Below are positions 3,046 to 28,405 of a stretch of DNA of 43,003 nucleotides, piece by piece (within the stretch, counting starts at the first letter, position 1; every line of letters begins with the position of its first letter). Below the pieces are notes generated by a model. That model worked only from the letters and a program-made list of their open reading frames with translations, was not told the DNA's origin and ran no database searches. The position numbers were made by a program, and so were the translations under genes. Source of the DNA: an uncultured Thermoleophilia bacterium (GTDB taxonomy: Bacteria; Actinomycetota; Thermoleophilia; UBA2241); contig CAYTRM010000001.1 of the NCBI GenBank assembly GCA_964440225.1, positions 1-43,003 of the forward strand, written 5' to 3'.

Positions 3046-4491
3046 ATGCAGCAGGCGTCACTCACTGTCTGGGATGCCGAGGCCTGTGCACGCGTGCATC
3101 GGGCTTCGCTCGAGCTTCTCGGGCGCACGGGTGTCGAGGTCAAGCACACGCGGGCGCGCGAGCTGTGCGCCTCCGCCGGCGCAAGTGTGGAGGGGAGTCG
3201 TGTACAGCTGCCGGCCGTCCTCGTGGAGCAAGCGCTGGCGAGCGCCCCGCGAACCTGGACGCTGCCGCCGCGCGGCGGCGGTTCGGCGCCGCTGGAATTG
3301 CGCGACGGCGCCGGCTACTTCGGCAGCGGCCCCGACTGCCTCTACGTGTCCGACCCCGAGACAGGCCGGCGCCGCCGGGCGCGTCTCGCCGACGTCGAGA
3401 CGGCGGCGCGCATCGCCGAGGTGCTGCCCAACATCGACTTCGTCATGAGCATGGCGCTGCCGGAGGACGCTCCCAGCGAGACCGTCGACCTCGCCCAGTT
3501 CGCCGCCATGCTCGCCGGCACGCGCAAGCCGATCGTCGTCTCCAGCCCGTTCGGCGGCGAGACGTTGCCGGTGATGCGCGAGATGGCGGCCGCCTGCGGA
3601 GAGGCGGCGAGCTTCGCCTGCCTGGCCATGAGCTCGCCGCCACTCATGCTCGACGACGTCTGCTGTTCCAAGACGCTTGCCTGCGCCGAGTTGGACATTC
3701 CGCTCGTACTGGCGCCCTCCGTCTCGGCAGGGGTGCAAGGCCCGGCGTCGCTGGCCGCCTGCGCCGCGGTGGCCAATGCCGAACTGCTGGCGGGCCTCGT
3801 CGTGCATCAGCTGGGCAAGCCCGGAGCGCCGTTCGTCATGGGGGTCGGCATCGGGACCATGAACATGCAGTACGCCGTTGAGGCCTACAACGCGCCCGGG
3901 GTGCTCGTCGGCAACCAGGCGCAACTCGACCTGGTGCGCAGCTACGGCCTCCCCAGCTGGCACTACGCCGGCCACACCGACAGCAAGCTGCTGGATGAGC
4001 AGTGGGCGCTCGAACTCGGCGTTGCCACCGTCATGGGCGCCCTCTCTCGCGCCACTCTGCTGCACGATGTCGGTTACCTCGAGAGCGGCCTGCAGAGCGC
4101 TCTCGAGGGCCTCGTGCTCGGCGATGAGCTCGCCGGCTACGCCCGCGCTCTGTTGAGGCCCGTATCGGTTGACGATGAGGCGCTGGCGCTCGCCGAAGTA
4201 GAGGCAGTGGGCCCCGGTGGCAACCACCTGGGGACGAGGATGACGCGTCACCACTTCCGCGACTTCTGGCGGCCCAGCCTGATCGATCAGAGTCCGTATG
4301 AGCACTGGGCCGCCGCCGGCGGCCGCACGCTGCTCGAGCGGGCACGTGAGCGGGTCGGGGAACTGCTCGCCGCGGAACCCGCGTTCGCGCTGGACGCCGC
4401 GACCCGGCAGCGGCTCGAGGAGCTCGCATCGGGAGGCGCTTCGGAGCAACGGGCCGGCCAGACTGCCGCGTCCGGCCGGGGAGCTTCCTGA
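3046..4491 (+). CDS. MttB-superfamily (trimethylamine methyltransferase-like, non-pyrrolysine) protein, paralog A
   Basis: 481-aa ORF with no in-frame TAG. Family-typical N-terminus (..VHRASLELLGRTGVEV..), PNIDFVMSMALPEDAP, RKPIVVSS, LLHDVGYLESGL, and VGPGGNHLG near the C-terminus. Closest to paralog C. Confidence 0.85.
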   Translation: MQQASLTVWDAEACARVHRASLELLGRTGVEVKHTRARELCASAGASVEGSRVQLPAVLVEQALASAPRTWTLPPRGGGSAPLELRDGAGYFGSGPDCLYVSDPETGRRRRARLADVETAARIAEVLPNIDFVMSMALPEDAPSETVDLAQFAAMLAGTRKPIVVSSPFGGETLPVMREMAAACGEAASFACLAMSSPPLMLDDVCCSKTLACAELDIPLVLAPSVSAGVQGPASLAACAAVANAELLAGLVVHQLGKPGAPFVMGVGIGTMNMQYAVEAYNAPGVLVGNQAQLDLVRSYGLPSWHYAGHTDSKLLDEQWALELGVATVMGALSRATLLHDVGYLESGLQSALEGLVLGDELAGYARALLRPVSVDDEALALAEVEAVGPGGNHLGTRMTRHHFRDFWRPSLIDQSPYEHWAAAGGRTLLERARERVGELLAAEPAFALDAATRQRLEELASGGASEQRAGQTAASGRGAS

Positions 4492-4492
4492 G

Positions 4493-5884
4493 ATGCCTCA
4501 TCACGCGGTGCCTCGCTTCGTGGCTTCCACGACCTGGGATCAGCTGCCCGACGATGTCCGGGAGCGCGCCAGGCTCTGTACGCTGGACAACCTCGGGGCC
4601 ATGCTCTCCGGGCTGGCGGCGCCGTCGGCAGCCATCGCCGCAGGCACCGCAGGCCGGCTGTGGGGCGGCGACGAGGCCACGGTCGTCAAGAGCGGCGTTC
4701 GCGCAAGCGTGGCAGGCGCGGCGTTCGCGAACGCCGTGGCGGCGAACGGGACCGACATCGACGACTGCGGTGTCTACACGCTCGGGCATCCCGGGGCGCA
4801 GATCCTGCCGGCCGCGCTCGCCCTGGCCGAGCACGGCTCGCTGCCGGGGCACGCCCTGCTGCGCGCCACCGTCGTCGGCTACGAGGTGGCCTTTCTCGCC
4901 GGCCGCTGCGTCCACGACTCCGAGACCTACTACTACCGCTCCTGCGGATCGTGGGGGTCGCTCGCCTGCGCTGCCGTCGCCGCCAACCTGATGGGGCTCG
5001 ACACGGAGGCGACGGCACACGCACTGGGCATCGCCGAGTATCACTCGCCGTACGCGCCCATGTTCCGCGACGTCGACGCGCCGGCGATGGTCAAGCATGC
5101 CTGTGGCTGGGGCGCGGCGACGGGCGTGACCGCCGCCGTCCTTGCGGCACAAGGGTTCACCGGCTGCCCCAGCATCCTCGAGGACGAGAAGTACCGCGGC
5201 TGGGTCGACGACGTCGGCAGACCCTTCCTGATCACCACCGGCATCATGTGGAAGAAGCACTCCTGCTGCGCGTGGACTCATCCGGCGCTCGATGCTCTCG
5301 AGGAGATCCTGCGACGGCAGCCGGTCGCGGCGGACGACGTGCGCCGCATCCGCGCGGTGGTCTACCGCGATGCCGTGCGGCTGGGCCTCAGACAGCCGGA
5401 GACGACCGAGGAGGCGCAGTTCAACCTCGCCTGGCCGCTCGCCGTGCGCCTCGTCGACGGCGAGGTCTCCCCGGCGCAGGTGCTCGAGCCGCGGCTCGGC
5501 GATCCACGCGTGCGCGCTCTCGCGGCGCGCGTGGAGATGGAGGAGTCGGAGGAGTTCACGTGGCTGTACGACCTCAGCTGCGACGAGGACCCCGAGGGCG
5601 CCGACATGGCACGAGTGGTCCTGGAACTCAGGGACGGCACGGTGCTCGACTCGGGACCGGTGCACTCGGATGTCTATCCCGACCATCCCTGGGGTCGCGG
5701 CGAGCTTGCCCGTAAGTTCCGCTGGCTGGCGCGGCCGCTGCTTCCCGGGGCGACCGTGGAGCAACTCATCGAGATGGTCCTGCGCCTCGACGAGGTCGAG
5801 GACTCACGCGAACTCCTCCGCGTCATCAAGGCCGGCCTGAGGCCGGAACAGGCTGAGCGGCATCACACCAAGGGGGACACATGA
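4493..5884 (+). CDS. MmgE/PrpD family protein, paralog 1
   Basis: ATG 1 nt after the MttB-A stop. MPHHAVPRFVASTTWDQLPDDVRERARLCTLDNLG..., NGTDIDDCGVYTLGHPGAQ, TTEEAQFNLAWP. Collinear with the 16793..18181 protein over its full length. Confidence 0.85.
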   Translation: MPHHAVPRFVASTTWDQLPDDVRERARLCTLDNLGAMLSGLAAPSAAIAAGTAGRLWGGDEATVVKSGVRASVAGAAFANAVAANGTDIDDCGVYTLGHPGAQILPAALALAEHGSLPGHALLRATVVGYEVAFLAGRCVHDSETYYYRSCGSWGSLACAAVAANLMGLDTEATAHALGIAEYHSPYAPMFRDVDAPAMVKHACGWGAATGVTAAVLAAQGFTGCPSILEDEKYRGWVDDVGRPFLITTGIMWKKHSCCAWTHPALDALEEILRRQPVAADDVRRIRAVVYRDAVRLGLRQPETTEEAQFNLAWPLAVRLVDGEVSPAQVLEPRLGDPRVRALAARVEMEESEEFTWLYDLSCDEDPEGADMARVVLELRDGTVLDSGPVHSDVYPDHPWGRGELARKFRWLARPLLPGATVEQLIEMVLRLDEVEDSRELLRVIKAGLRPEQAERHHTKGDT

Positions 5885-6336
5885 GAGCGACGATCCACGC
5901 CGATCCGCCCCACGGCGTCGCGGCTCTTGACGCGCTCGAACGACCGGGCGTCGACCCCCGCCGCGTGGCGATCGCCCACACGGACGCCGAGATCGACGTG
6001 ACCTATCAGACGGCGTTGGCCGAGCGAGGAGCCTTCGTCGAGTGCGATTGCATCGGCTGGGAGGGGGCGGCGCGGACCGGGGCCGACCAGGGAACGTCCG
6101 CGGATCACATGCGGGTGGAGGTCGTGGCATCCCTGCTGGCCGCGGGGTTCGGCGACCAACTCCTGCTCTCGCAGGACGTCGTCACGCGCATCCAGCTCAC
6201 GGCCCACGGCGGGGGAGGCTACGCGTACTTGCTGCGCGACCTGCCTCCGCTCTTCGAGGAACACGGAATCCCGCGACACCTGCTGCACCGGCTCGTGACC
6301 GACGGGCCCGCCCGCTGGCTGGCTTGGGGCCACTGA
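5881..6336 (+). CDS. Phosphotriesterase-related (PTE/Php, amidohydrolase superfamily) protein, C-terminal half only (truncated or remnant)
   Basis: 151-aa ORF starting with an ATGA overlap on the PrpD-1 stop. ATIHADPP..GVDPRRVAIAHTD...LLLSQDV...GGGGYAYLL matches only the second half of ~300-aa PTE-family proteins. The N-terminal HxH metal site region is absent. Confidence 0.55.
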   Translation: MRATIHADPPHGVAALDALERPGVDPRRVAIAHTDAEIDVTYQTALAERGAFVECDCIGWEGAARTGADQGTSADHMRVEVVASLLAAGFGDQLLLSQDVVTRIQLTAHGGGGYAYLLRDLPPLFEEHGIPRHLLHRLVTDGPARWLAWGH

Positions 6337-6477
6337 GATGCGGTGGTCTCCGAGCTTCGCATTGCCCGCATACCTCCGCAGCCTGCCCGGCATCGATCGA
6401 CCCACCGGGGCGTGCCCTCTGGACAGATCGAGGGCCGAGCGCGACCATTCGACTCACCGACCAGCGAAGGAGCCAGC

Positions 6478-8337
6478 ATGAATCGTCCCAGAGCGGCTTG
6501 GATCAGGACATCCACCATGGCCTTTGCGATTGCGCTGTCGGCGGCGCTGCTGACGCTCGCTCTGAGCGGCGCCGCGCTCGCCGGCTCGCCGTCGCCCGCC
6601 ACCGCTTCCTCGCCGGCCGCCGCGTCGCCGTCGAGCGGCCCGCTCACCTATCGCATCGGGATCGCCCAGGACGTCGTCGACGGCATGAATCCGTTCAGCT
6701 CCCAGAGCGGGATCGCGTGGGAGAGCTTCCGCCTCGGCTACAACTTCCTCACCTGGTACGACGCCGACTACAAGCCCGTGCCCGACGCCGCCGAGAGCTG
6801 GGAGGTCAGCCCGGACGGCCTGCGCTGCACCTTCCACCTGCGCCCGGGCCTCATGTGGAGCGACGGCCGGCCGCTGACCGCGCGCGACGTCGCCTTCACC
6901 TACAACCTGATCCTGAAGACGGAGCACTGGATGTACATCCAGTACCTGGTGGGCGTGACCAGCGTGACGGCGCCCGACGACGCGACCGTCGTGATCGTCT
7001 CGAAGAAGCCAAGCCCCGGCATGCTGGCGCTGTACATCCCGATCCTGCCCGAGCACGTCTGGAGCAAGGTCGATCCCGACAAGCTCGACTACTTCAAGAA
7101 CCTGCCCATGGTGTGCTCCGGCCCGTTCCGCGTGACCGAGGTCAAGAAGAGCCACTGGGCGACACTCGAGGCCAATCCGGACTACACCGAGGCGCTCGGC
7201 GGGCCGCCCCGCGTCCAGACCGTGCGCTTCGAGATCTACCAGACCCCCGAGACCATGGTCGCCGACTACAAGGCCGGCAACCTCGACTCCATCAGTTCGT
7301 TCACGGCCCTCGACTACAAGACGCTCAAGGGCATGCCGGGTACGACCGTCGACGCAGGGCCGTCGATCGGCTTCCACCAGCTCAGCTTCAACTGCTGGGA
7401 CTCGCCCAAGTCCAACGGCAACCCGCTGACGCGTGACGTCAGCGTCCGCCAGGCGGTCGCGTGGGCGATCGACAGGGAGAAGATCAATTCGATCTCCATG
7501 GGCGGGCTCTCCACGACGGGTGCGGCGATGTTCGGGCCGGCCCAGCCCTACTGGCAGTGGACGCCGCCGGCCGGCGAGGCCTACGCGTACGACCCCGAGA
7601 AGGCCAGGCAGATCCTCGATGCCGCCGGCTACGTCGACGGCGACGGGGACGGCGTGCGCGAGGCGCCGGACGGCGAGCCGCTCATCCTCCGCCTCGTCGC
7701 CCTGAACGAGTACCCGGAGGACGTGAGCGCCGCCAAGATGATCGTGGCGTGGTGCCGAGACGTCGGCATCAAGCTGAAGCTCGACCTGATGGACGAGGGC
7801 GCCTTCACCGACCAGTTCTACGACAACGCCGACTACGACCTGTTCATCTGGAGCTGGGGCGGCGACATCGACCCTGGGTTCATGCTCTCCACCTACACCA
7901 CCACGCAGATCATGAACAACAGCATGAACCAGTACTCCAACCCGGAGTACGACGCCCTGTTCGACGAGCAGGCCCAGGCTCTCGACGCTCTCAGCCCGGA
8001 CGACAGGAGCAAGCGGCAGGCCATCGTCTTCGAGATGCAGAGGATCATTCACCGCGATTGCCCGGATATCGTGCTCTGGTACAACGTCAACCTGGCGGCC
8101 TACCGGACCGACCGATGGACGGGGTACGTGAGGGCGCCCGGGCCGGAAGGCGCTCCCTTCTGGAACATGATCCGTGCGACCTACCAGGACGTGCAGCCGA
8201 ACGTGGCGACCGAGGACGCCGCGGTCGCCGGCTCGTCGGCGACGGTGTGGATCGTCGCCGGCGTCGCCGTCGTGATCGCCGTCACCGCCGTCGTCCTGCT
8301 GCTCCGGCGGCGTCCGCATGCGGTGGAGGACGAATGA
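6478..8337 (+). CDS. ABC-transporter substrate-binding protein, family 5 (peptide/opine/nickel type), signal peptide plus C-terminal TM anchor (SBP1)
   Basis: GAAGGAG RBS before ATG 6478. N-terminal signal peptide (..LALSGAALAGS..) without a lipobox Cys. Family-5 core (WSDGRPLTARDVAFTYN, ILPEHVW, GSGPF). C-terminus SSATVWIVAGVAVVIAVTAVVLLLRRRPHAVEDE. Confidence 0.85.
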   Translation: MNRPRAAWIRTSTMAFAIALSAALLTLALSGAALAGSPSPATASSPAAASPSSGPLTYRIGIAQDVVDGMNPFSSQSGIAWESFRLGYNFLTWYDADYKPVPDAAESWEVSPDGLRCTFHLRPGLMWSDGRPLTARDVAFTYNLILKTEHWMYIQYLVGVTSVTAPDDATVVIVSKKPSPGMLALYIPILPEHVWSKVDPDKLDYFKNLPMVCSGPFRVTEVKKSHWATLEANPDYTEALGGPPRVQTVRFEIYQTPETMVADYKAGNLDSISSFTALDYKTLKGMPGTTVDAGPSIGFHQLSFNCWDSPKSNGNPLTRDVSVRQAVAWAIDREKINSISMGGLSTTGAAMFGPAQPYWQWTPPAGEAYAYDPEKARQILDAAGYVDGDGDGVREAPDGEPLILRLVALNEYPEDVSAAKMIVAWCRDVGIKLKLDLMDEGAFTDQFYDNADYDLFIWSWGGDIDPGFMLSTYTTTQIMNNSMNQYSNPEYDALFDEQAQALDALSPDDRSKRQAIVFEMQRIIHRDCPDIVLWYNVNLAAYRTDRWTGYVRAPGPEGAPFWNMIRATYQDVQPNVATEDAAVAGSSATVWIVAGVAVVIAVTAVVLLLRRRPHAVEDE

Positions 8338-9671
8338 GCCGGGCGGGCAGTGCTCAGACGTCGCCCGGCCCCGCGATCGGCGACGGCTTCGAACTGCTTG
8401 CGGCCGGAGACCTGATCTCTTCGCGCCCGCTCGCGTCCAGGCTCGCGCGCGACCCCGCCTTCTCCGACGTCGCGCGTCTGCTCGGCGAGGCGTCGCTGGC
8501 GGTCGGCAACATGGAGACGTCGATCCTCGACCTGCGCGCGTTCGGCGGTCACCCGCGCACCGTCGACGACTGGTGCATGGCCGCCCTCCCCGCCGTCGCC
8601 GGGGACCTCGCCGGTCTGGGCTTCCGGCTCGTCTCGCGCGCCAACAACCACTGCTGCGACTGGGGCATCGAGGGGATGCGCGAGACCGGCCGGCATCTCG
8701 ACGCGGCCGGGATCGTCCATGCGGGGACCGGAGAGACGCTGGCACACGCCCGCGCGCCGCGCTACGTGGAGACGGAGCACGGGCGTGTCGGGCTCGTCTC
8801 CGCCTATGCGGCGCAGAAGTGGGACAACGACGCCGCGCTCGACCAGTTCGGCGAGGCGCCGGCGCGTCCGGGCGTGAGCGCCCTTCGCATCGCCCTCACG
8901 GCGACGGCCCCGAAGCCCGTGGTCGACGGCCTGCGAGACGTCTACCGCAAGGCCTATCCGGGCTCGGCCGACCCCGGCGACGGCGCGCTCACCATCTTCG
9001 ACACGACGTTCATCGATGGCGAGGCGACCGCCGTGCGCTGGGCGCCGGACCCCGCCGACGTCGCCGAGGTGCTGCGCAGCGTACGCCTCGGCGCCCAGCA
9101 CTCCGACCTGCTCGTCGTCTCCCTGCACGTGCACGAGGAGGAAGGGAGCGCCGCGCAGCCGCCGGCCTTCCTCGTCGACCTGGCGCACGCCGCCGTCGAG
9201 GCCGGCGCCGGCGCGGTCTTCTGCCACGGCTCGCACGTGCTTGGACCCGTCGAGATCCGCCGCGGTCGGCCGATCTGCTACGGCCTCGGCAACTTCTTCT
9301 GGTCGGACATCCAGGAGTGCCTCCACGGGGCGCTCCATGCGGCCGCCCGGGCGCGGTTCGGCGACGCGCTCGGCGACCCGGCGATGGTGACCGACGCCGA
9401 CGTCAACCGGGCGTTCAACGCGAGCGAGTTCGCGGACTCCCGCTACTTCGAGTCGGTGCTCGTGGAACTCACGTACGCAGGCGGCGACCCCGCCGTGCGT
9501 CTGCTGCCCGTCGACCTGCGCTACGGCACACCGCTCACCGAGAGCGGCACGCCGCGGTTCGCCGCCGAGAGCACCGCGCGGGCGATCGTGGAGCGGCTCG
9601 ACCGCATGTCGCGGCCTTTCGGCACGGCGGTCGAGCTGCGGGACGGAGTCGGTCGTGTCTTGTCGGCCTGA
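8334..9671 (+). CDS. CapA family protein (PGA_cap, metallophosphatase-like), paralog 1
   Basis: ATGA overlap with the SBP1 stop. GNMETSI and SRANNHCCDWGIEGMRETGRHLDAAGIVHAGTGE fit the CapA pattern. Highly similar to 15429..16796. Confidence 0.85.
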   Translation: MSRAGSAQTSPGPAIGDGFELLAAGDLISSRPLASRLARDPAFSDVARLLGEASLAVGNMETSILDLRAFGGHPRTVDDWCMAALPAVAGDLAGLGFRLVSRANNHCCDWGIEGMRETGRHLDAAGIVHAGTGETLAHARAPRYVETEHGRVGLVSAYAAQKWDNDAALDQFGEAPARPGVSALRIALTATAPKPVVDGLRDVYRKAYPGSADPGDGALTIFDTTFIDGEATAVRWAPDPADVAEVLRSVRLGAQHSDLLVVSLHVHEEEGSAAQPPAFLVDLAHAAVEAGAGAVFCHGSHVLGPVEIRRGRPICYGLGNFFWSDIQECLHGALHAAARARFGDALGDPAMVTDADVNRAFNASEFADSRYFESVLVELTYAGGDPAVRLLPVDLRYGTPLTESGTPRFAAESTARAIVERLDRMSRPFGTAVELRDGVGRVLSA

Positions 9672-9746
9672 GGCTGCGGGGCGCCACCCCGAGATGAGTT
9701 CCCCGTCCGAGGGAGTGGCCCGCCGTATCGCACTCGAGGAGGGTGC

Positions 9747-11015
9747 GTGAGCATGGGGGGGTTCCGCAGCAAGTCCGTGGTGCTCGTCGTGGTGCCGGTG
9801 ATCCTGCTCTTCGCCGGGCTGCTTCTGGGGCTGGTGGGCACGGGCTGCGCCAGGCAGGCCGGCCCGCCGCAGGCCCCGCCGGTGCAGGCCACACCCGTGG
9901 CCACGCTCTCTCCGGCCGTCCCGTCGACGATCGACGACGTGTCGCCGGCCGGCCTCGACGCCTACATCAAGGCCAAGATGAAGGTCGCGCACGTGCCGGG
10001 CCTGGCCGCGTGCGTCGTCTCTGACGGCGAGATCGTCTGGGCCAAGGGCTACGGTTGGGCCAATGTCGAGAAGCGCCGTCCCGTCACGCCCGATACCGGC
10101 TTCATGCTCGCCTCGATCTCCAAGACCCTCGTCGCTACGGCGGTGATGCAGCAGGTCGAGGCCGGCACCCTGTCGCTCGACGCGGACGTCAACACCTACC
10201 TGCCGTTCCCGGTGCGCAATTCCAAGCATCCCGACGATTCGGTCACGCTCCGTCAGCTGCTCACCCACACCTCGAGCGTCCGCGACCACTCCCCGGTCTG
10301 GGACGGCCTCTACACGTACGGGGAAGACTCACCGGTCCCGCTCGACGACTTCCTCGAGGGTTATCTCACGTCCGGCGGGAGCTACTGGGACGAGAAGGAC
10401 TACTCCCGCTTCGCGCCCGGCGAGAACTACGAGTACTCGAACGTCGGCGCCGACCTGGCGGCCTACGTCGTCGAGTCCGCCACAGACATGCCCTTCGACC
10501 AGTACTGCGCCACGCAGGTCTTCGCGCCGTTGGGCATGAACGCCACGTCATGCAAGCTCGAGGGTCTCGACCGCAGCGCTCTTGCCATGCCGTACCGGTA
10601 CGCCTCCGGCTCCGGAAAGTACCGTGCCTACGGACACTACAGCTACCCCGACTACCCTTGCGGTCAGGCACGTTCGAGCGTCTCCGAGCTCGGGCGCTTC
10701 CTTGCTTCGTACACGAGTGACGGGACCTACCAGGGCGTGCAGCTTCTCAAGCCCGAGTCGGTGGCCGAGATCCTGCGCCCGCAGACCTCTCTGTACAAGG
10801 GGCAGGGTCTGGCCTGGTACCGCGAGAAGGTCGGCGGGCCGAAGGTGCTCGGGCACCAGGGCGGCGACCAGGGCGTCTGTACGTTCATGTTCTTCGACGA
10901 GAAGACCGGCGACGGCGCAATCGTGCTGACCAACAGCGACGTGTCGACGTGGAAGGAGTGGTACGCGGTCGAGGACGTGTTCGCGAGGCTGATCGCCGAG
11001 GCGCCACGACTCTGA
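9747..11015 (+). CDS. Serine hydrolase (beta-lactamase family) with N-terminal membrane/secretion signal
   Basis: GAGGAGGG RBS. Start at GTG 9747 or ATG 9753. Hydrophobic N-terminus VVLVVVPVILLFAGLLLGLVGTGC. SxxK motif ASISKT. Confidence 0.85.
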   Translation: MSMGGFRSKSVVLVVVPVILLFAGLLLGLVGTGCARQAGPPQAPPVQATPVATLSPAVPSTIDDVSPAGLDAYIKAKMKVAHVPGLAACVVSDGEIVWAKGYGWANVEKRRPVTPDTGFMLASISKTLVATAVMQQVEAGTLSLDADVNTYLPFPVRNSKHPDDSVTLRQLLTHTSSVRDHSPVWDGLYTYGEDSPVPLDDFLEGYLTSGGSYWDEKDYSRFAPGENYEYSNVGADLAAYVVESATDMPFDQYCATQVFAPLGMNATSCKLEGLDRSALAMPYRYASGSGKYRAYGHYSYPDYPCGQARSSVSELGRFLASYTSDGTYQGVQLLKPESVAEILRPQTSLYKGQGLAWYREKVGGPKVLGHQGGDQGVCTFMFFDEKTGDGAIVLTNSDVSTWKEWYAVEDVFARLIAEAPRL

Positions 11016-11075
11016 AGACTCCTCGTACGTGCGCGGTTTGAAGAGCGTGGTTCGCGAGGCTCTGATCAGGGAAGC

Positions 11076-13106: not shown

Positions 13107-13522
13107 CGGGTCCTTTCCCCCCATTTCACGGGTCGTGCCCGCAGGATATCCCATGGCCATGTCCGGTAGACTCCTTTCGGGCGTCAGGCGGTCACGAGGT
13201 CAGCGTCCCATGAGGCGCGGTGCACCTTCCGCAAGCTCGCCTTTCGCGTTGTTGGAGACCAGGCAGGAGGCATGTGATGGTTGATTTCCGGGCAGCGCTT
13301 GAGGGCATCGAACGCTTCCTCGACGAGCGCCTGCCGCGCTCCGACGCGCCCGGCGCGGTCGTGGCACTGACCGATCGCGAGCAGTTCCTGGGCGCCACCG
13401 CGGTGGGGGTCGCCGACATGGCCGCCGAGCGGCCGATGCAGGTCGACGACCGCTTCCAGATCGGTTCGATCAGCAAGTCGTTCGCGGCCATCATCGCGAT
13501 GCAGGAAGTAGAGGCCGGTCGT
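12221..13522. repeat. Master copy of the block duplicated at 57..1476
   Basis: See the 57..1476 feature. Here both genes continue to full length. Confidence 0.8.
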
Positions 13523-14956
13523 CTCGACCTGCAGGCTCCGGTGACCGACTACGTGCCTTGGTTCGAGGTGTGCTCGCGCTTCGCGCCGATCACCACGCAT
13601 CACCTGCTGACCCACACCGCCGGCCTCATCATGGGTACCGACTTCAGCCTCAGCGGTGTGCATCAGGTCTGGGCCCTGCGCGAGACCGAGTGCGTGTACG
13701 CGCCCGGCGAGCGCTTCTATTACTCAAACGACGGCTACAAGCTCGTCGGTCTGATCCTTGAGGCGACCACCGGCAAGCCCTTTGCCGAGTTGCTTGCCGA
13801 GCGCATCCTGGCGCCGCTGGGCATGAACGACAGCGATTCCGTGATCACGCTGGCGACGCAGGCGACGGTCGCCCTGCCGCATCAGCGCATCTTCGACGAT
13901 CGTCCAAGCCACCCGGGACAGCCCTGGATGGTCAGCCCCTGGTACGAGACGGACACCGCCGACGGCGGCATCGTTTCGACGGCCTCCGACATGTGCGCCT
14001 ACGCGCGGTTGCTGCTGGCGCGCGGCGACGCACCGGCGGGACGCGTGTTCTCGGAAGAGAGCTGGGAGCGGTTCACGCAGCGCGCCATCGAAGACACCGA
14101 CGAGCCCGGCGCCTGGTACGGCTACGGCCTGATCACGCGTGAGAAGGACGGCCGCACGTTGATCGGTCACTCGGGGTCGATGGCCGGCTACAGCTCGTAT
14201 CTGATGACGGACCCGGAGGCGGGGCTGGCCGTGGTCGTGCTGATGAACGGCATCGAAGACCGGACTGAGCTCGTGCAGTACGCGCTCGAGGCGGGGCGGG
14301 CGGCGCACGCGGCGGCACCCGTGCCCCCGCCCTCGCCGCCCGCCGACCCCGCCGTCATCGACGACGCCGAGCAGTACGCCGGCACGTATAGTCTCTGCGG
14401 CGGCGGTCCCGGAGGTGGCCCCAGCGGCGGTTCCGGCGGCCCGTCGGGCGGCGAGCTGACGCTCGCCTCCTCCTCCGGCCGCCTTCTCCTGCGCGCCGGC
14501 GGCATCGAGGTGGCTCTCGAGCGCCGCGAGCCAGATATCTTCGTCGTGCCGCATGCCGACTGGGATCGCTTCTATCTGCGCGCCGGTCGCGACACGGCCG
14601 GCGCGGTCGCCGAGCTCTTCCACGGTCCCGACTGGCACGTCAACGATCGCTACTCCGGGCCGCGCGAGTCCGCCCCCCGGCCCGAGTGGCAGCCGTTCGT
14701 CGGTCACTACCGCTCATGGAGCGTCTGGCACCCTGATCTGCGCGTCATCGATCGGAAAGGAAAGCTGTTGCTCAGCGCCCCGTGGGTCGGGGCGCCGGCA
14801 TGCGAACTCGAACTCGTGCCGCTCGGCGAGGCGCTCTTCCGCGTCGGCGTCGACGAGTGGCGACCCGACCGCCTGAGGTTCGACGCTGTCATCGACGGCC
14901 GCGCCACGAGCGTGTTCTACAACCAGGCTCCCCTGTACCGCGCGTTCACTCCGTAG
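13277..14956 (+). CDS. Serine hydrolase (beta-lactamase family) with Gly-rich linker and C-terminal extension domain
   Basis: AGGAGG RBS 6 nt before ATG 13277. SxxK motif GSISKSF and YSNDGY (YxN-like). Confidence 0.85.
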   Translation: MVDFRAALEGIERFLDERLPRSDAPGAVVALTDREQFLGATAVGVADMAAERPMQVDDRFQIGSISKSFAAIIAMQEVEAGRLDLQAPVTDYVPWFEVCSRFAPITTHHLLTHTAGLIMGTDFSLSGVHQVWALRETECVYAPGERFYYSNDGYKLVGLILEATTGKPFAELLAERILAPLGMNDSDSVITLATQATVALPHQRIFDDRPSHPGQPWMVSPWYETDTADGGIVSTASDMCAYARLLLARGDAPAGRVFSEESWERFTQRAIEDTDEPGAWYGYGLITREKDGRTLIGHSGSMAGYSSYLMTDPEAGLAVVVLMNGIEDRTELVQYALEAGRAAHAAAPVPPPSPPADPAVIDDAEQYAGTYSLCGGGPGGGPSGGSGGPSGGELTLASSSGRLLLRAGGIEVALERREPDIFVVPHADWDRFYLRAGRDTAGAVAELFHGPDWHVNDRYSGPRESAPRPEWQPFVGHYRSWSVWHPDLRVIDRKGKLLLSAPWVGAPACELELVPLGEALFRVGVDEWRPDRLRFDAVIDGRATSVFYNQAPLYRAFTP

Positions 14957-15408
14957 GCCGCCTGTGGCGCTACTCCCTGCCGGCCGGCTTCGGTCTCCAG
15001 GTCGTGGCGCCCACCCAGCCGTCGGATGCATCGGCCGGCAGTCGAACCCGGGTATGCAGGGCTTGCTATGCAGCAGCGGCGTACCGTCGAGCATGTCGAT
15101 GCCTGAGACGACGAGGATCCGGTCTTCCCGACTCAGCAGGCGGACGACCGACAGGCCGATCCTGTTGGGGCGGTAGGGATAGCGTGAGGCGCAGATGCCG
15201 TGCATCTCGTCATCAAGGAACATTGGGCGCACGAGCTCGATGTCGCTTGCCCTGTCGAACGGGTACAGCAGATCGGCGAACACCTCCGCCCGCCCTGTCG
15301 GGGAAGACCAGACAGCCGGTCAGCTCGGTGCAAGGGGGCCGCCTCCCTGGGGGCGGCGCCGTCCCGATAAGGGGGCCGTGCGAGAGGGGCCGTGCTAGAC
15401 TGCCTCAC
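14714..15408 (-). pseudogene. TrmO/TsaA-like (YaeB/UPF0066) domain gene, apparently frameshifted
   Basis: The main ORF (to 15283) has ICASRYPYRPNRIGLSVVRLLSREDRILVVSGIDMLDGTPLLHSKPCIPGFD, cf. the family core RPNPIGLS...LDGTP(V/L)LDIKPY. Upstream N-terminal-type motifs (RPPYRDGAAPRE, LPRQGG) lie in a different frame, with the shift inside CAGGGCGGGCGG (~15290-15300). The 3' tail overlaps the convergent hydrolase gene by ~240 nt. Confidence 0.45.
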
Positions 15409-15428
15409 CCGCGAAGCCTGGAGACTCC

Positions 15429-16796
15429 ATGTGCGCCAGTGAGGGATCCGAATCTGACCACCCTGCACAACGCATGGTCCAGCCGGGCATCGACGACGGC
15501 TTCACGATCGTCCTGGTCGGAGACCTCATCTCGTCGCGCCCGCTGGCGCCCAAGCTTGCGCGCGACGCCGGCTTTGCCGACGTCGCGCGTCTGCTGCGCG
15601 AGGCGTCGCTGACGATCGGCAACATGGAGACGTCGATCGTCGACATGCGCACCTTCAGTGGCCATCCGCGTACGGTAGAAGACTGGTGTCTGGCCGCTCT
15701 ACCTGACGTCGCCCCAGACCTCGCCGAGCTTGGATTTCGCCTCGTCTCGCGCGCCAACAACCATTGTTGCGACTGGGGTATCGAGGGCATGCGAGAGACT
15801 GGTCGTCACCTTGACGATGCCGGCATCATGCACGCGGGCGCCGGCGAGACACTCGCCCACGCCCGCGCGCCGCGTTACGCCGAGACCGGGCACGGCCGCG
15901 TCGGTCTCGTGTCCGCCTACGCGGCGCCGAAATGGGACAACGACGCGGCGCTCGATCAGTTCGGCGAGGTGCCGCCGCGCCCCGGACTCAGCGCCTTGCG
16001 CATCGCGCTCACAGTGACGAGCCCGAAGCCCGTGGTCGATGGCCTGCGCGACGCCTACCGCAAGGTCAACCCGGGTTCGGCCGATCCGGGGGACGGCGAC
16101 CTCACCGTCTTCGACACGACCTTCGTCGAAGGCGAGACGACCGCCGTGCGCTGGACGCCCGACCTCGGCGACGTCACCGAGGTGCTGCGCAGCATTCGTC
16201 TCGGCGCCCTGCACTCCGACCTGCTGGTCGTCTCGCTGCACGTCCACGAAGAGGAGGGCAGCGCGGCTCAGCCGCCGGCCTTCCTCGTCGATCTGGCGCA
16301 CGCTGCCATCGACGCCGGCGCCGGCGTCGTCTTCGGGCACGGTTCGCACGTGCTGGGCCCGGTCGAGATCTACAAGGGCCGGCCGATCTGCTACGGCCTT
16401 GGCAGCTTCTTCTGGTCCGACATCCGGGAGTTCTTGCACGGCTCCGTCCGTGCTGCCGCCCGCGCCCGGTTCGCGGACCAGCTTGGCGATGCCGTGATGG
16501 TCACCGACGCCGACGTCAACAGGGTCTTCAACGCAAGCGGGTTTGCCGATTCCCGCGTCTTCGAGTCCGTGCTCGTCAAGCTCACCTACTCCGACGGCAA
16601 GCCCATCGTACGCCTGCTGCCGATCGACCCGCGCTACGGCACGCCGCTCAGCGAGAGCGGCGTTCCGCGCTTCGCCGGCCCCGACATGGCGCCAGCGATC
16701 CTCGACCGTATCGACGCGATGTCGCGACAGTTCGGCACGGCCGTCGAGATCCGTGACGGGATCGGCTACGTCGTCCCCGCTGAGGACGCGCGATGA
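15429..16796 (+). CDS. CapA family protein (PGA_cap), paralog 2
   Basis: GGAGA RBS. GNMETSI and SRANNHCCDWGIEGMRETGRHLDDAGIMHAGAGE. Collinear with 8334..9671. Confidence 0.85.
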   Translation: MCASEGSESDHPAQRMVQPGIDDGFTIVLVGDLISSRPLAPKLARDAGFADVARLLREASLTIGNMETSIVDMRTFSGHPRTVEDWCLAALPDVAPDLAELGFRLVSRANNHCCDWGIEGMRETGRHLDDAGIMHAGAGETLAHARAPRYAETGHGRVGLVSAYAAPKWDNDAALDQFGEVPPRPGLSALRIALTVTSPKPVVDGLRDAYRKVNPGSADPGDGDLTVFDTTFVEGETTAVRWTPDLGDVTEVLRSIRLGALHSDLLVVSLHVHEEEGSAAQPPAFLVDLAHAAIDAGAGVVFGHGSHVLGPVEIYKGRPICYGLGSFFWSDIREFLHGSVRAAARARFADQLGDAVMVTDADVNRVFNASGFADSRVFESVLVKLTYSDGKPIVRLLPIDPRYGTPLSESGVPRFAGPDMAPAILDRIDAMSRQFGTAVEIRDGIGYVVPAEDAR

Positions 16797-18181
16797 GCCG
16801 CCCAGTCTCGGAGATCGTCGCCGGCTTCATCACCGGTTGCCGCTGGACAGACCTTCCGGATGAGGTGAAGGCCAAGGCGCGCTTCTGCCTGCTGGACAAC
16901 CTGGCGGCGACACTCACGGGTGCACAGACGAAGATCGCGCAGATCGCCGACGCCTACGCCACGGAGACGTGGCCCGGCCGGGGCGCGACGGTCTTGGCAA
17001 CGGGTCGCGACACGTCGCCAACCGGGGCGGCCTTCGTCAATGCAGTGGCCGCCAACGGCACCGACATCGACGACTGCGGCATCTACACGTACGGTCACCC
17101 GGGTGCCCAGCTGTTTCCGGCGGCGCTGGCGCTGGCCGAAGCCCGGCGCGCATCGGGCGCGGCGTTCATGTCGGCGCAGGTCGTCGGCTACGAGGTCGCG
17201 TTCAGGACCGGCCGCTGCATGCACGATCGCGAGATCAGCCCGGAGGAAGGCGGCTTTCGCTCCTGCGGCTCGTGGGGCTCGGTGGCCTGCGCCGGCGTCG
17301 CTGCTCACCTCATGGATCTGCCTCGCGAGCAGACGCTGCAGGCGCTCGGGATCGCCGAGTACCACTCGCCCGACGTTCCCATGGAGCGCGACATCGAGGC
17401 TCCCACCATGGTCAAGCACGGTATCGGGATCGGCGCCATGACGGGGATCATGTCCGCCCGCTTGGCCGAGCTCGGCTTCACGGGCGTGCCGAGCATCCTT
17501 ACCTTCGACGAGTACGCGGGCTGGGTCGGGGACATCGGGACCGACTACCTGCTGCCGACCGGGATCATGTGGAAGGAATACTCCTGCTGCGGCTATTCGC
17601 ATCCGGCCATCAACGCGCTGAAGACCATCATGGACGCCACGCCGATCCCCATTGATCGGGTCGAGCGGATCGTCCTTGAGGTTTACGGGTACGCGGCCGA
17701 TCTCGGCGCGCGGCTGCCCGGGACGACCGAGGAGGCGCAGTTCAACCTCGCCTGGCCGGTCGCCTGCTTCCTGGCCTACGGCGAGGTGGCGCCCGAGCAC
17801 GTGCTCGAGCCCCACCTCGGCAATGAGGCGGTACGCGCGCTGGCGAGCAAGGTCGAGATCGTCGTCTCCGACGAGTTCACAAGGCTCTACGCGCTCGATG
17901 AGGCCGGCGACCCGCAGGGCATGGAGGTCGCCGACGTGACCGTCGAGCTCGGAGACGGCCGTGTCTTGAGGTCGGGAGTGCAGCCCTCGCCGGTCTACGG
18001 CGACTGGCCGCCAGGGAAGATGGAGGCCAAGTTCCGCTGGCTGGCGCGCGGTCTGATCGGCGATGAGGCGACCGTGCGGCTGATCGAGATGTGCTGGCAC
18101 TGCGACGAGCTCGACGACGTGCGCGAACTGACCGCACTGATCAGCGCGGCCCGGACTAGCCGCCAGGCCGTCCAGACGTAG
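16793..18181 (+). CDS. MmgE/PrpD family protein, paralog 2
   Basis: ATGA overlap with the CapA-2 stop. NGTDIDDCGIYTYGHPGAQ and TTEEAQFNLAWP. Collinear with 4493..5884. Confidence 0.85.
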   Translation: MSRPVSEIVAGFITGCRWTDLPDEVKAKARFCLLDNLAATLTGAQTKIAQIADAYATETWPGRGATVLATGRDTSPTGAAFVNAVAANGTDIDDCGIYTYGHPGAQLFPAALALAEARRASGAAFMSAQVVGYEVAFRTGRCMHDREISPEEGGFRSCGSWGSVACAGVAAHLMDLPREQTLQALGIAEYHSPDVPMERDIEAPTMVKHGIGIGAMTGIMSARLAELGFTGVPSILTFDEYAGWVGDIGTDYLLPTGIMWKEYSCCGYSHPAINALKTIMDATPIPIDRVERIVLEVYGYAADLGARLPGTTEEAQFNLAWPVACFLAYGEVAPEHVLEPHLGNEAVRALASKVEIVVSDEFTRLYALDEAGDPQGMEVADVTVELGDGRVLRSGVQPSPVYGDWPPGKMEAKFRWLARGLIGDEATVRLIEMCWHCDELDDVRELTALISAARTSRQAVQT

Positions 18182-18632
18182 GCTGCGGCAGCCCCGCCGG
18201 TTCAGCCGGTACGGCCCGGTCGCGTGCGCGGCTCCACGGCCGGCAGCATCCTGTCGCGTCCGAGCGCCCGCGTGAGGTCGGTGGAGCGTCGCGGTCGAGC
18301 CGCTCCCGCGCCTCACGCGTGGTGGTGTCGCCGATACCGGCGTTGCGGACCGTGGCCGCCATGCCGTGCGCCTTGAGGGCTCCGGGCAGCAGTTCCGGGT
18401 ACATCTCGATTGACTGCCCGGTCCAATCATCGACCGCGGTCGTGGAGTCGCCGAGAGCGACGATCACCAGCGGTGCTGGCTCGCACTTCGCCGTCGATTC
18501 CCTGGGGGGACCGCTCACCCCACGCCCCCCTGCTGGCAGTCTCCCAAGCCGGCCCGGTTCGCTCTCGAGGGGGAGACTGCACAATCGATGGGTCTTCCGC
18601 GAGCGAGGATCTGCCTTCCGCTGGGGGGGCAC
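18156..18632 (-). pseudogene. SGNH/GDSL hydrolase 5' fragment (blocks I-II only)
   Basis: LVIVALGDSTT (block I GDS) and VRNAGIGDTTT (block II) are encoded by ~18288-18473. No block III (GxND) or V (DxxH) appears in any frame. The ORF tail runs into the 3' end of PrpD-2. Confidence 0.45.
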
Positions 18633-18735
18633 GATCTATCTCCCCCATCGGTTGCAGGACCATGTTGCGAGCCAGACTGATGTCGGGGGAGAGGCTGTCC
18701 GACGGGGCATTACAGAATTGCTCAGGAATGTATCT

Positions 18736-18764
18736 CATGAACAGCATGAACAGTATGGTACAAT
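18736..18764 (+). promoter_or_regulatory. Candidate promoter of the MttB-B operon: exact tandem CATGAACAG x2 abutting an extended -10 (TGGTACAAT)
   Basis: CATGAACAG at 18736-18744 and 18745-18753, TG at 18756-18757, TACAAT at 18759-18764, all in a locally AT-richer 245-nt spacer. No good -35. Confidence 0.4.
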
Positions 18765-18822
18765 GCCCGGCATCACTGCCTTCGGGTGCACTGCGGCTCT
18801 GCCGCCTGATTCGCTCGCTGAA

Positions 18823-18844
18823 GGACTGGGGGCGTCCCCGGTCC
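18823..18844 (+). other. Leader hairpin (9-bp stem incl. one G-U, GCGU loop) ~35 nt upstream of the MttB-B start
   Basis: GGACTGGGG-GCGT-CCCCGGTCC. No downstream U-tract, so it is not called as a terminator. Confidence 0.4.
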
Positions 18845-18878
18845 AACTCGAGGCAAAGCAACGACGAAGGGGAGCAGC

Positions 18879-20297
18879 GTGGCCACGGCCAGGATCACCT
18901 ATCTCTCTGAGAGCGAGCGCGCCGATCTGATCGAGCAGACGTTCATCGTGCTCGAGGAGGTCGGCGTGACCTTCCACACGCCCGAGGCGCTCGACCTGCT
19001 GGAGGAGGCCGGCGCGGTCGTCGACCGCGAGACCACGCTTGCGCGCCTGCCGCGCGACCTGGTCGAGCGCTGCCTGGCGCTGGCGCCCAGCCAGGTGCTC
19101 CTCGCCGCTCGCGACCCGCGCAACGACGTGCTGATCGGCGGCGGCGCGCCGCTGTCAGTGAGCAGTAGCGGTACCGCGACCTACATGCTCGACGACCTCA
19201 CCGGCGAGCGCCGCGACGGCACCGCCGCCGACCTGCGCACGATCATGCGCCTCTTCGACGCGCTCCCCGAGTACGACTACGTGTGGCCGACCATCTCGGC
19301 GCGCGACCTCGACCCGCTGACCGCCAACCTCGAGATCGAGGCAATCTCGCTGCGCTCGTGCGCCAAGCACGTGCAGGACGAGGTGCGCTCCATAGAGTAC
19401 GTCGAACCGTTGCTGGACATCTTCGAGGTCGTCGCTGGTGCGCCCATGAGCAAGCGGCCCATCTTCTCGACCATCAACTGCACCATCGCGCCACTGTCGC
19501 ACGACGCGGAGATGACGCCGGCCAGCATCGCCCTGGCGCGCGCCGGCGTGCCGATCGTCATCATGCCGATGCCGCTGATGGGCACCACGGCGCCGCTGAG
19601 CGCCGCCGGCGTGACGGTCATCACCCTGGCCGAGATCGCCTCGGCCGTCGTGCTCTTCCAGCTCGCCGCGCCGGGCTGCCCGCTGATCGCGGGGCCTGAA
19701 CCGGCGCTGGCAGACCTGCGCAGCGGCCTCTACCTGAGCGCCCCGCCGGAGATCGCGTTCGCCGCCCTGGCCTGCATCGACGTGCTCAAGTCGTGGGGTC
19801 TGCCGGTGCAGGGAGGGAGCTTCGGCGGCGACGCCAAGGCGACCGACTTCCAGGACGGGCTCGAAGGCGCCTTCCACGGCCTGCTGGATTCGCTCAGCGG
19901 CGCCGACACGCTCATCGGCCCAGGCGAGTTCGACGGCGCTCAGTCAGTGAGCCTGGGCGCCATCGTGCTGCATGCCGACGCCACCGGCATGCTCAAGAAG
20001 GCGCTCGCCGACACGCCGTTCGACAGCGCCTCGATGCTGATCGACGACATCCGCGCCGTGGGCCCCGGCGGCCACTTCATGGGCCGCCGGTCGACCCGGC
20101 AGCGCGCCCGTGACGCCTGGCAGCCGGCCGTGATGCGGCGCGGCACCTTCGAGTCACACCGCGGCAGCACGCTGATCGAAGACGCCGTGGCGCGGGCCCA
20201 CCACCTGCTGGCCACCCATGAGGTCCTGCCGATCGCCGACGACATCGAGCGCCACATGGACCAAGTCATCGCCGGCTTCGCGACCGCCAACGCCTAG
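18879..20297 (+). CDS. MttB-superfamily (non-pyrrolysine) protein, paralog B
   Basis: GTG start with GAAGGGGAG RBS. 472 aa with no in-frame TAG. IVIMPMPLMGTTAP and VGPGGHFMG. Closest to paralog D. Confidence 0.85.
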   Translation: MATARITYLSESERADLIEQTFIVLEEVGVTFHTPEALDLLEEAGAVVDRETTLARLPRDLVERCLALAPSQVLLAARDPRNDVLIGGGAPLSVSSSGTATYMLDDLTGERRDGTAADLRTIMRLFDALPEYDYVWPTISARDLDPLTANLEIEAISLRSCAKHVQDEVRSIEYVEPLLDIFEVVAGAPMSKRPIFSTINCTIAPLSHDAEMTPASIALARAGVPIVIMPMPLMGTTAPLSAAGVTVITLAEIASAVVLFQLAAPGCPLIAGPEPALADLRSGLYLSAPPEIAFAALACIDVLKSWGLPVQGGSFGGDAKATDFQDGLEGAFHGLLDSLSGADTLIGPGEFDGAQSVSLGAIVLHADATGMLKKALADTPFDSASMLIDDIRAVGPGGHFMGRRSTRQRARDAWQPAVMRRGTFESHRGSTLIEDAVARAHHLLATHEVLPIADDIERHMDQVIAGFATANA

Positions 20298-20329
20298 ACG
20301 ATCGACAGCGACTTACCAAGGAGGTCAGG

Positions 20330-21604: not shown

Positions 21605-21632
21605 CAGTGAACGACAATCTGGAGGTTCCTCT

Positions 21633-23057: not shown

Positions 23058-23094
23058 CAGGGGTCATAGGGAGTCAGCGGAGAAAGGATCAAGC

Positions 23095-27705: not shown

Positions 27706-27783
27706 GGCTCGCCTCCGTGGACGCGCGCCAGCCGGACCTGTAGGCTCGCGCCGGCCGTGGGCGACGAGTCTGGAGGTACCGGC

Positions 27784-27876: not shown

Positions 27877-27888
27877 GGGCGCGGCCGC

Positions 27889-28218: not shown

Positions 28219-28265
28219 GGAGTGCTCCTGGCAAAGGGGTGCTGCTGGGGCCTTGGAGTGTCGCA

Positions 28266-28279: not shown

Positions 28280-28405
28280 CGTCAACGTCGGACGGAAGAT
28301 GAGACGGTACGTCCGACCCCGGTGGTAGGCTCCGCCCGTTTGAGCCCCACACTGTAGGATGGCCTCGTCCAGAGGCCCGGTTCCCAGGGGGGGAGGCGCA
28401 CCGAC

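Follow-up and report, generated by a model that had tools for sequence, protein, structure and literature searches.

Repeated co-location of MttB, PrpD-like and CapA genes in a Thermoleophilia genome: a probable juxtaposition of separately conserved gene pairs

Three gene families found together twice

The stretch of DNA analysed here, called the window, comprises 43,003 bp of contig CAYTRM010000001.1, contig 1 of a metagenome-assembled genome (MAG) of an uncultured Thermoleophilia bacterium (GenBank assembly GCA_964440225.1; 3.18 Mb, 612 contigs, 79% completeness, 2.35% contamination). In its first part, genes of the MttB, MmgE/PrpD and CapA families lie together twice. This raises the question whether the three form one functional module that was duplicated, as an earlier note made from the letters alone had proposed, or came together separately. 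We consider it probable that the first 27 kb are a recombination-scarred catabolic island and that the repeated triad is a juxtaposition of three separately conserved gene pairs.

A map of the first 27 kb was built from Pfam and NCBIfam scans and self-comparison. The G+C content of the window is 68%, and mechanical lists of open reading frames (ORFs) are hence full of spurious frames. The genes central to the question are listed below.

1709..2866, reverse strand: TetR regulator, divergent from MttB_A (Pfam TetR_N, TetR_C_6)
3046..4491, forward strand: MttB_A, non-pyrrolysine MttB superfamily, PrpD-linked A/C clade (Pfam MTTB, 1.7e-71)
4493..5884, forward strand: PrpD_1 (Pfam MmgE_PrpD_N and _C), start 1 nt past the MttB_A stop
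5881..6336, forward strand: C-terminal half of a phosphotriesterase (PTE) family gene, covering only positions 164-297 of the 298 of the Pfam PTE profile
6343..8337, forward strand: SBP_1, family-5 solute-binding protein of the peptide/opine type (Pfam SBP_bac_5, 1.8e-84)
8334..9671, forward strand: CapA_1, PGA_cap/calcineurin fold (Pfam PGA_cap, 3.2e-49), ATGA-coupled to SBP_1
15429..16796, forward strand: CapA_2 (Pfam PGA_cap, 4.8e-51), first gene of the CapA_2-PrpD_2 cassette
16793..18181, forward strand: PrpD_2 (Pfam MmgE_PrpD_N and _C), ATGA-coupled to CapA_2
18879..20297, forward strand: MttB_B (Pfam MTTB, 4.1e-69), first gene of the MttB_B-ODC-MttB_C-SBP_2-MttB_D operon
20330..21604, forward strand: ODC, fold-III pyridoxal phosphate (PLP) decarboxylase, LysA-like (Pfam Orn_Arg_deC_N, Orn_DAP_Arg_deC; TIGR01048, 177 bits against a cut-off of 298)
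21633..23057, forward strand: MttB_C (Pfam MTTB, 6.6e-73)
22984..24906, forward strand: SBP_2, family-5 solute-binding protein (Pfam SBP_bac_5, 8.1e-84)
about 24882..26345, forward strand: MttB_D, fourth MttB gene, on the B/D side of the tree (Pfam MTTB, 6.1e-62)

All MttB, PrpD and CapA genes named in the earlier note (MttB_A and MttB_B, both PrpD and both CapA genes) were recovered by Pfam where it had placed them. The tight junctions it had described were also confirmed: TGA-g-ATG at 4489-4495 and ATGA overlaps at 8334-8337 and 16793-16796.

At least 54 matches to PF06253 (MttB) were counted in the MAG, six of them with a single in-frame TAG codon; four MttB genes lie in the window, spread over 23 kb. 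The PrpD and CapA subfamilies studied here have two genes each in the MAG, all inside the window. With so many MttB matches, proximity to an MttB gene alone is weak evidence, and CapA and PrpD are the informative anchors.

Divergence of the duplicated genes

Both CapA and both PrpD copies proved collinear, as the earlier note had stated, with 78% amino acid identity over 439 aa for CapA (synonymous divergence dS 0.59) and 54.5% over 453 aa for PrpD. The amino acid identity of MttB_A and MttB_B is only 27%, that of MttB_A and MttB_C 49% and that of MttB_B and MttB_D 33%. The three families do sit together twice, but the two MttB genes assigned to the triads are not recent copies of each other, the paralogue of MttB_A within the window being MttB_C. 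A closer paralogue of MttB_A (74% identity) was observed on a short contig of the MAG (C109:529-1866).

Self-comparison also revealed a duplication beyond those of the earlier note, involving an S15 peptidase gene and the 5' end of a beta-lactamase-fold gene:

1..942, reverse strand: S15_1, S15-family (X-Pro dipeptidyl-peptidase/CocE-like) hydrolase gene, 5' part only, cut by the window edge (Pfam Peptidase_S15, 6.7e-65)
1192..1491, forward strand: 5' remnant of Blac_2 type, beta-lactamase fold (tblastn 70% over 100 aa to Blac_2 residues 12-106)
11076..13160, reverse strand: S15_2, full-length S15 hydrolase (Pfam Peptidase_S15 and PepX_C)
13220..14956, forward strand: Blac_2, 578-aa beta-lactamase-fold hydrolase, D-aminopeptidase/esterase-like (Pfam Beta-lactamase, 2.2e-64)

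Positions 57-1475 match 12221-13521 at 81-88% nucleotide identity. The S15_1 part is 87.7% identical to 12221-13107 (89% at the protein level between S15_1 and S15_2) and the Blac part 80.9% identical to 13266-13521. At the nucleotide level the duplicated genes fall into two age classes, with CapA, S15 and the Blac remnant at 81-88% and PrpD and MttB_A/C at 67-68%. As dS is compressed by the strong bias towards G+C at third codon positions (GC3) in this genome, identity at third positions was used instead and compared with an unrelated-pair baseline. It amounted to 0.72 for S15, 0.66 for CapA, 0.49 for PrpD and 0.48 for MttB_A/C, with MttB_A/B as the baseline at 0.47. Since PrpD and MttB_A/C are close to this baseline, their synonymous sites are saturated, and those of CapA and S15 are not. 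What was duplicated recently is S15, the beginning of Blac_2 and, at a separate place, CapA; neither PrpD nor any MttB is included. With protein and third-position identities so far apart for the CapA, PrpD and MttB_A/B pairs, the co-duplication of three families proposed earlier does not hold.

Phylogeny of the three families

The MttB tree was computed with FastTree from 101 sequences and the PrpD tree with a "quick" IQ-TREE search from 90 sequences. A first CapA tree with few close relatives left the order of CapA_1 and CapA_2 unresolved; denser sampling resolved it. Comparison loci, genomes and contigs are cited below by our own labels.

PrpD_1 and PrpD_2 fall into separate supported clades and are not sister paralogues. 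PrpD_1 groups with four proteins (L081, L082, L118 and L124; support 99), all encoded alongside MttB and a family-5 solute-binding protein (SBP5). PrpD_2 groups with L097 and L106 (support 100) in a clade that is sister (99) to the PrpD of operons ordered ODC-PrpD-MttB_C-SBP_2-MttB_D, for example in G064. PrpD_1 has relatives elsewhere (81-66% identity) that are far closer to it than PrpD_2 is.

MttB_A and MttB_C belong to a clade of 72 members (support 100), which holds 28 of the 32 MttB proteins encoded within 600 bp of a PrpD gene and only nine of the 29 other full-length MttB proteins of the MAG. MttB_B and MttB_D lie in the other half of the tree, together with 19 of these 29. Comparison of identities and phylogenies, the check for co-divergence suggested earlier, thus places the MttB as well as the PrpD copies apart. 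In the clade of MttB_C itself, the other members (7/7) are all PrpD-adjacent, so that MttB_C, and not MttB_B, is the historical partner of PrpD_2.

CapA_1 is part of an 11-member clade (support 95/92), in which the members of known context (G016, G064, L162) all have SBP_1 upstream. CapA_2 is part of a 6-member clade (97/93), and PrpD lies downstream in every member of known context (the window, L161, L106). Both clades are found inside a tight Thermoleophilia-type group with a long stem from the CapA proteins of other phyla (37-48% identity). Both CapA copies are paralogues specific to this lineage; they predate the species splits within each clade and are much younger than the PrpD split.

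Conservation of the gene neighbourhoods

The PrpD-like subfamily comprises more than 900 members. Among metagenome contigs and assemblies, 55 of 88 PrpD loci have an MttB gene within 3 kb, 54 of the 55 on the same strand and 42 within 600 bp. When only loci flanked by 3 kb or more on each side were counted, MttB was present in 18 of 30. As background, about 6% of the bases in this MttB-rich MAG lie within 3 kb of an MttB match. The pair of an A/C-clade MttB and a PrpD-like gene is old and widespread, usually on the same strand and often touching. In the window it is represented by TetR/MttB_A-PrpD_1 and, in a loosened form, by PrpD_2 and MttB_C. On the contig of P0002, a PrpD 81% identical to PrpD_1, the order is PASTA, TetR (reverse), MttB (forward), PrpD (forward), without SBP_1-CapA_1. 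PrpD also adjoins or lies near an A-clade MttB in G069, G005, G019 and G035; the last three gave no CapA match, and none of the four is among the class-level CapA matches. At the level of the phylum, only distant PrpD family members (35-38% identity) were found, with no MttB in their 1.5-kb flanks.

Relatives (L004, L148, L139, L149) carry the PrpD of the ODC/MttB_C operon in one of two places, after ODC and before MttB_C or after MttB_C and before SBP_2. The operon in the window has no PrpD at either spot; PrpD_2 is located 3.4 kb upstream, behind CapA_2.

The second conserved pair is SBP5 with CapA_1, which travels with S15 and beta-lactamase-fold hydrolases. SBP_1-CapA_1 is kept in L008/G016, L009/G064 and L162, at 87-90% nucleotide identity and in three different surroundings. 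No PrpD match at E <= 1e-30 was found in G016. In G064, SBP_1-CapA_1-Blac_1-Blac_2 and ODC-PrpD-MttB_C-SBP_2-MttB_D lie on separate short contigs; Blac_1 follows CapA_1 in L009/G064 as in the window (83% amino acid identity) and is absent at that position in L162. The gene order of L162 (about 86% nucleotide identity) is DnaE ... DUF6504, SBP_1-CapA_1, S15 (reverse), Blac_2, DUF6504, MttB_B-ODC-MttB_C-SBP_2. It is 85% identical to the window over 18672-23852 and 87% over S15_2, and Blac_2 is syntenic, as it also is in L009. Both MttB_A-PrpD_1 and CapA_2-PrpD_2 are absent from the 21 kb covered. On the contig of P0006, like P0002 one of the nearest relatives of PrpD_1, a partial gene overlapping the stop of the solute-binding protein gene may be a CapA.

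The third pair, the CapA_2-PrpD_2 cassette of 2.65 kb, is restricted to close relatives. In a survey anchored on PrpD, CapA was found beside PrpD only in the orthologues of PrpD_2 (L097, L106, L161). With the window, this amounts to four contigs with three different downstream flanks. In L161, the cassette lies between an SBP5 fragment and S15 and DUF885 genes, both on the reverse strand; window positions 15482-18132 are 81.8% identical to L161 10054-12731, and the flanks differ. In L097, CapA-PrpD_2 is followed by an M28 peptidase, and the L106 contig ends just past the PrpD gene. Across the contigs, the stop and start codons of the two genes overlap or nearly so, at about 80% nucleotide identity and with both flanks differing.

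Full-length CapA relatives were examined at 61 loci of other phyla or genera (flanks up to 10 kb, one genome per species); none has PrpD or MttB nearby, and a few have beta-lactamase-fold or SBP5 genes; a CapA relative of 55% identity sits after a complete Opp-type importer. Within the class, CapA relatives at E <= 1e-60 were found in eight of 401 genomes, all within the family of the window. CapA adjoins PrpD in no other species among those of the genus that were searched (36 and 47 for CapA, 53 for PrpD). The triad, whose retention in relatives the earlier note had made a test of its claim, is therefore not kept: the CapA-PrpD adjacency was not found in these species, and L162 retains MttB_B/ODC/MttB_C and SBP_1-CapA_1 without PrpD in 21 kb. 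The weaker claim, that the genes work together, gains support for pairs (PrpD with MttB widely, CapA_2 with PrpD_2 in the four contigs).

Assembly of the island and competing explanations

Gene remnants mark the joints: the PTE half-gene at 5881-6336, the Blac_2 5' piece of about 100 codons at 1192-1491, a piece with the first 54 positions of a PHP domain at 27337-27705, and the following feature at the left joint of CapA_2-PrpD_2.

about 15040..15283, reverse strand: TrmO_N remnant, covering only positions 39-116 of the 116 of the Pfam profile

The PTE remnant, of which no second copy was found in the MAG, forms the joint between the MttB_A-PrpD_1 and the SBP_1-CapA_1 units. On the simplest reading, the first "module" of the earlier note is TetR-MttB_A-PrpD_1 juxtaposed with SBP_1-CapA_1, and the second is the CapA_2-PrpD_2 cassette ahead of an MttB_B operon, which in a close relative is present without the cassette. 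The cassette would have formed after the duplication of CapA within this lineage, and would now sit ahead of the pre-existing MttB_B-ODC-MttB_C operon; it may have been inserted in the lineage of the window or lost in L162. In L162, the block SBP_1-CapA_1-S15-Blac_2 is flanked by two DUF6504 copies in the same orientation (7447-7745 and 15604-16082), a possible substrate for the recombination that moves the block.

Several points weigh against a juxtaposition of separate pairs. The cassette is conserved and translationally coupled, and PrpD is linked to MttB, so a real three-way functional link in this lineage is possible. CapA and MttB share a neighbourhood in at least two relatives, and in L162 the distance from CapA_1 to the MttB_B operon is no more than about 5 kb although PrpD is missing there. 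The joints specific to the window (5884/6343, 14961/15482 and 18132/18672) rest on one MAG contig, and the comparison loci are mostly short metagenome contigs without taxonomy that are phylogenetically non-independent.

The alternative closest to the earlier note is that MttB, PrpD and CapA form a single three-enzyme pathway module, duplicated as a block, later rearranged and held together by selection. CapA and PrpD do co-occur twice within 17 kb, with the only such PrpD genes of a 79% complete MAG, the coupling at the junctions is tight, and the adjacencies of CapA_2 with PrpD_2 in four contigs and of PrpD with MttB in many loci are as this would predict. We nevertheless regard it as very unlikely, as a single event cannot account for the divergences, MttB_A and MttB_B come from different clades, and PrpD_1 is not the sister of PrpD_2. 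In relatives, each pair occurs without the third gene, the 61 CapA loci elsewhere have neither partner, and the gene to which CapA_1 is coupled is SBP_1, not PrpD_1, with a gene remnant between the units. Where a genome has more than 50 MttB genes, finding three families side by side more than once is no evidence of a duplicated pathway.

The opposite view, that every adjacency including CapA_2-PrpD_2 is accidental and without functional meaning, draws on the at least 54 MttB matches in 3.18 Mb with four in 23 kb, on the many gene remnants and on the three contexts of SBP_1-CapA_1; the CapA-PrpD pairing, limited to close relatives, could reflect recent common descent. It is nonetheless unlikely, given that PrpD-MttB adjacency exceeds the MAG background about ten-fold, is same-stranded in nearly all cases and concerns a single MttB clade marked by a pocket signature of its own, and that the (near-)overlap of CapA_2 and PrpD_2 is kept while both flanks differ at about 80% nucleotide identity. 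A chimeric contig joining pieces of two related strains is the least credible explanation and highly unlikely: the MAG is fragmented and slightly contaminated and several joints are unique to this contig, but the copies, at 54-89% protein identity, are far too diverged for strain variants, and long stretches over several joints are collinear with the independent assemblies L162, G016, G064 and L161. What remains as the new element, when the island is read as juxtaposed pairs, is a set of MttB loci with a constant, uncharacterised PrpD-like partner and a lineage-restricted CapA-PrpD cassette.

Predicted functions of the encoded proteins

The chemistry given below for the MttB, PrpD-like and CapA proteins is in each case predicted from sequence comparison and gene context. 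The four MttB proteins of the window match PF06253 over their full length (210-246 bits against a cut-off of 25). Their ORFs contain no internal stop and thus no in-frame TAG, and they score 252-307 bits (MttB_A 269) against the TIGR02369 cut-off of 525; an identity as pyrrolysine-type trimethylamine methyltransferase MttB was rejected on both grounds. MtgB, MtpB, MtcB and MtyB are characterised members of the non-pyrrolysine MttB superfamily. The best match of MttB_A in the Protein Data Bank (PDB) is MtgB of D. hafniense (9YCE/2QNE, 2e-45), and five B12-binding_2 matches were found in the MAG outside the window, representing corrinoid-binding proteins encoded on other contigs, for example C89 and C177. 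In contrast to the MtgB/MtgC/MtgA system, the window encodes no corrinoid protein, methyl acceptor transferase or activase.

MtgB binds its substrate through Y97, R312, H348 and F356, and the carboxylate-binding Arg312 is conserved in the characterised members that act on acidic quaternary amines (PMC13080624). At these four positions MttB_A has S/W/H/G and MttB_C A/F/H/G. Unlike MtgB, the PrpD-linked clade has neither Arg312 nor the aromatic pair of Tyr97 and Phe356, and only His348 is kept; for MttB_B and MttB_D, which are divergent, the multiple alignment can be trusted less. The pattern x-[F/W/M]-H-[G/A] was observed in 28 of the 32 PrpD-adjacent MttB proteins (L081-L160) and is a possible specificity signature for annotating this clade. 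With Arg312 lost, glycine betaine and similar substrates are unlikely to be bound in the known manner, and glycine betaine was rejected as a substrate of MttB_A and MttB_C because F, W or M replaces this arginine. MttB proteins of the A/C clade would transfer a methyl group from an imported methylated amine, other than glycine betaine in view of the pocket, to a corrinoid protein encoded elsewhere in the genome.

In other parts of the MAG, a single in-frame TAG was observed in several high-scoring MttB genes, and a PylD gene (TIGR03911, 208 bits against a cut-off of 150) shares its contig with a gene for a B12-binding protein. The positions listed for these MttB, TAG, PylD and B12-binding observations are C249:871-2325, C330:1357-2769, C135:2224-3621, C64:5832-7220, C88:8727-9242 and C89:5067-5852. 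It is probable that the organism uses pyrrolysine, and its MttB family has expanded exceptionally.

The PrpD-like proteins score 158 and 156 bits to PF03972 and 110 and 81 bits to PF19305 (cut-offs 32), giving the two-domain MmgE_PrpD_N/C architecture of cis-aconitate decarboxylase (CAD) and iminodisuccinate (IDS) epimerase. In a profile search of the PDB, IDS epimerase ranked before CAD and E. coli PrpD (2HP0, 6e-37 over profile positions 8-384; 6R6U, about 1e-34; 1SZQ, 3e-8). Asp93, His103, Lys207 and Lys272 are the core common to CAD, IDS epimerase and methylcitrate dehydratase, the active site of human CAD (hCAD) comprises eight residues (D93, T97, H103, H159, K207, K272, H277 and Y318), and the mechanism of IDS epimerase is described as uncharacterised (PMC6789909). 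The core is present as D88, H99, K201 and K254, invariant in 90 subfamily members, with an alignment that is ambiguous by two residues for the equivalence of K201 and Lys207. Differences from CAD lie in the remainder of the active site: His159 of hCAD (His150 of IDS epimerase) is replaced by Gln or Arg and Thr97 by Cys, and H277 and Y318 have no conserved counterpart. Identity with CAD was rejected on these four of eight residues. Two cysteines, C151 and C259, are invariants specific to the PrpD-like subfamily and set it apart from CAD and IDS epimerase, as does its gene context of MttB and SBP5 in place of prp, itaconate or IDS genes.

A true PrpD was likewise rejected: to the model of 2-methylcitrate dehydratase (NF042438) the proteins score 42-46 bits against a cut-off of 950, the match to 1SZQ is weak, and prpB and prpC were not found among the Pfam matches of the window. 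We infer an active cofactor-free enzyme that (de)protonates a carbon in an acidic substrate and has its own specificity. Given the retained Asp/His/Lys/Lys core and the invariant cysteines, it would most likely perform a cofactor-free proton transfer (epimerisation, isomerisation or decarboxylation) on the same carbon skeleton that MttB demethylates. No paper linking MttB with MmgE/PrpD proteins, or naming a PrpD-family partner for a characterised system, was found in the literature searched.

The CapA proteins match PF09587 (PGA_cap) with 168 and 174 bits (cut-off 27). The only solved relative is MslH (PDB 8GQ9, 3.8e-43 over residues 35-441 of CapA_1), a Ca(II)-dependent epimerase of the C-terminal Trp of a lasso peptide (PMC10406935). 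According to the HMMER alignment, CapA keeps E44, N87, H259 and H261 of MslH as metal ligands, H88, D91 and H295 as catalytic residues, and all residues validated by mutagenesis in the aligned part; D11 of MslH falls outside the aligned stretch, and CapA has a GD motif at the expected place. Unlike MslH, the proteins reach only 179 and 165 bits to NF038314 (epimerase_MslH), their sole NCBIfam match, against a cut-off of 700. Lasso cyclase, peptidase and precursor genes are absent among the Pfam matches of the window, and the conserved partners of CapA are an SBP5/Opp-type importer and hydrolases, which suggests a catabolic role rather than one in the synthesis of ribosomally made peptides (RiPPs).

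The PGA_cap domain scores above the gathering score, as expected of CapA/PgsA proteins of poly-gamma-glutamate synthesis, but the window CapA proteins carry an additional C-terminal region in common with MslH. PF14102 (CapC/PgsC) gave no match in the 79% complete MAG, and no PgsB-type ligase is encoded in the window; a function in poly-gamma-glutamate synthesis was rejected on the missing CapC. The likeness to MslH, the conserved SBP5/Opp context and the hydrolases nearby (S15, beta-lactamase-fold, M28) point to an action on imported peptide-like compounds as the best inference. Genes of this kind that carry the annotation "capsule synthesis" more likely encode MslH-like enzymes with a tie to peptide import. 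Together with SBP5 and the peptidases, CapA might handle the peptide-like form of the substrate, possibly by C-terminal epimerisation or hydrolysis.

A tentative and rather improbable extension would unite these predictions. The Arg312-less MttB clade and the cysteine-bearing, IDS-epimerase-like PrpD would be an obligate two-enzyme system for a methylated amine, with epimerisation or isomerisation by the PrpD-like enzyme making the substrate or the demethylated product usable. Through the CapA_2-PrpD_2 cassette, this lineage would have drawn the MslH-like CapA epimerase into the same pathway, by which N-methylated amino acids in peptide-bound or D-configured form could then be used.

Genomes hold many non-pyrrolysine MttB enzymes, but, to our knowledge, substrates are known for only a handful. 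Their metagenomic annotation is reported to be blocked by missing specificity determinants (PMC13080624, 2026). One MttB clade is defined here by a pocket signature, the replacement of Arg312 by F, W or M, and by its constant PrpD-like partner. The MttB/PrpD-like pair is a concrete and testable enzyme pair for substrate discovery.

Other features of the window

The remaining features of the map are a second beta-lactamase-fold gene, a regulator and a defence island.

9747..11015, forward strand: Blac_1, beta-lactamase-fold serine hydrolase (Pfam Beta-lactamase, 2.7e-63)
26386..27282, forward strand: RpiR
28406-39207: island of type I restriction-modification, AbiEi-AbiEii and Fic-RhuM genes, followed by HAD and SBP_3

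The NCBIfam matches of Blac_2 to AcmB, AmpH and D-aminopeptidase were all below cut-off. Pfam returned no family for a 203-aa ORF at 18319-18930 nor for several small ORFs in the window.

In the region comprising 27337-28297 and 28406-39207, the restriction-modification/AbiE/Fic island was observed between a DUF6504-like sequence and the HAD gene. In the sister species G016 (L001 2495-7550), SBP_1-CapA_1 lies between a DUF6504-like sequence and HAD-SBP_3, the same slot with other cargo.

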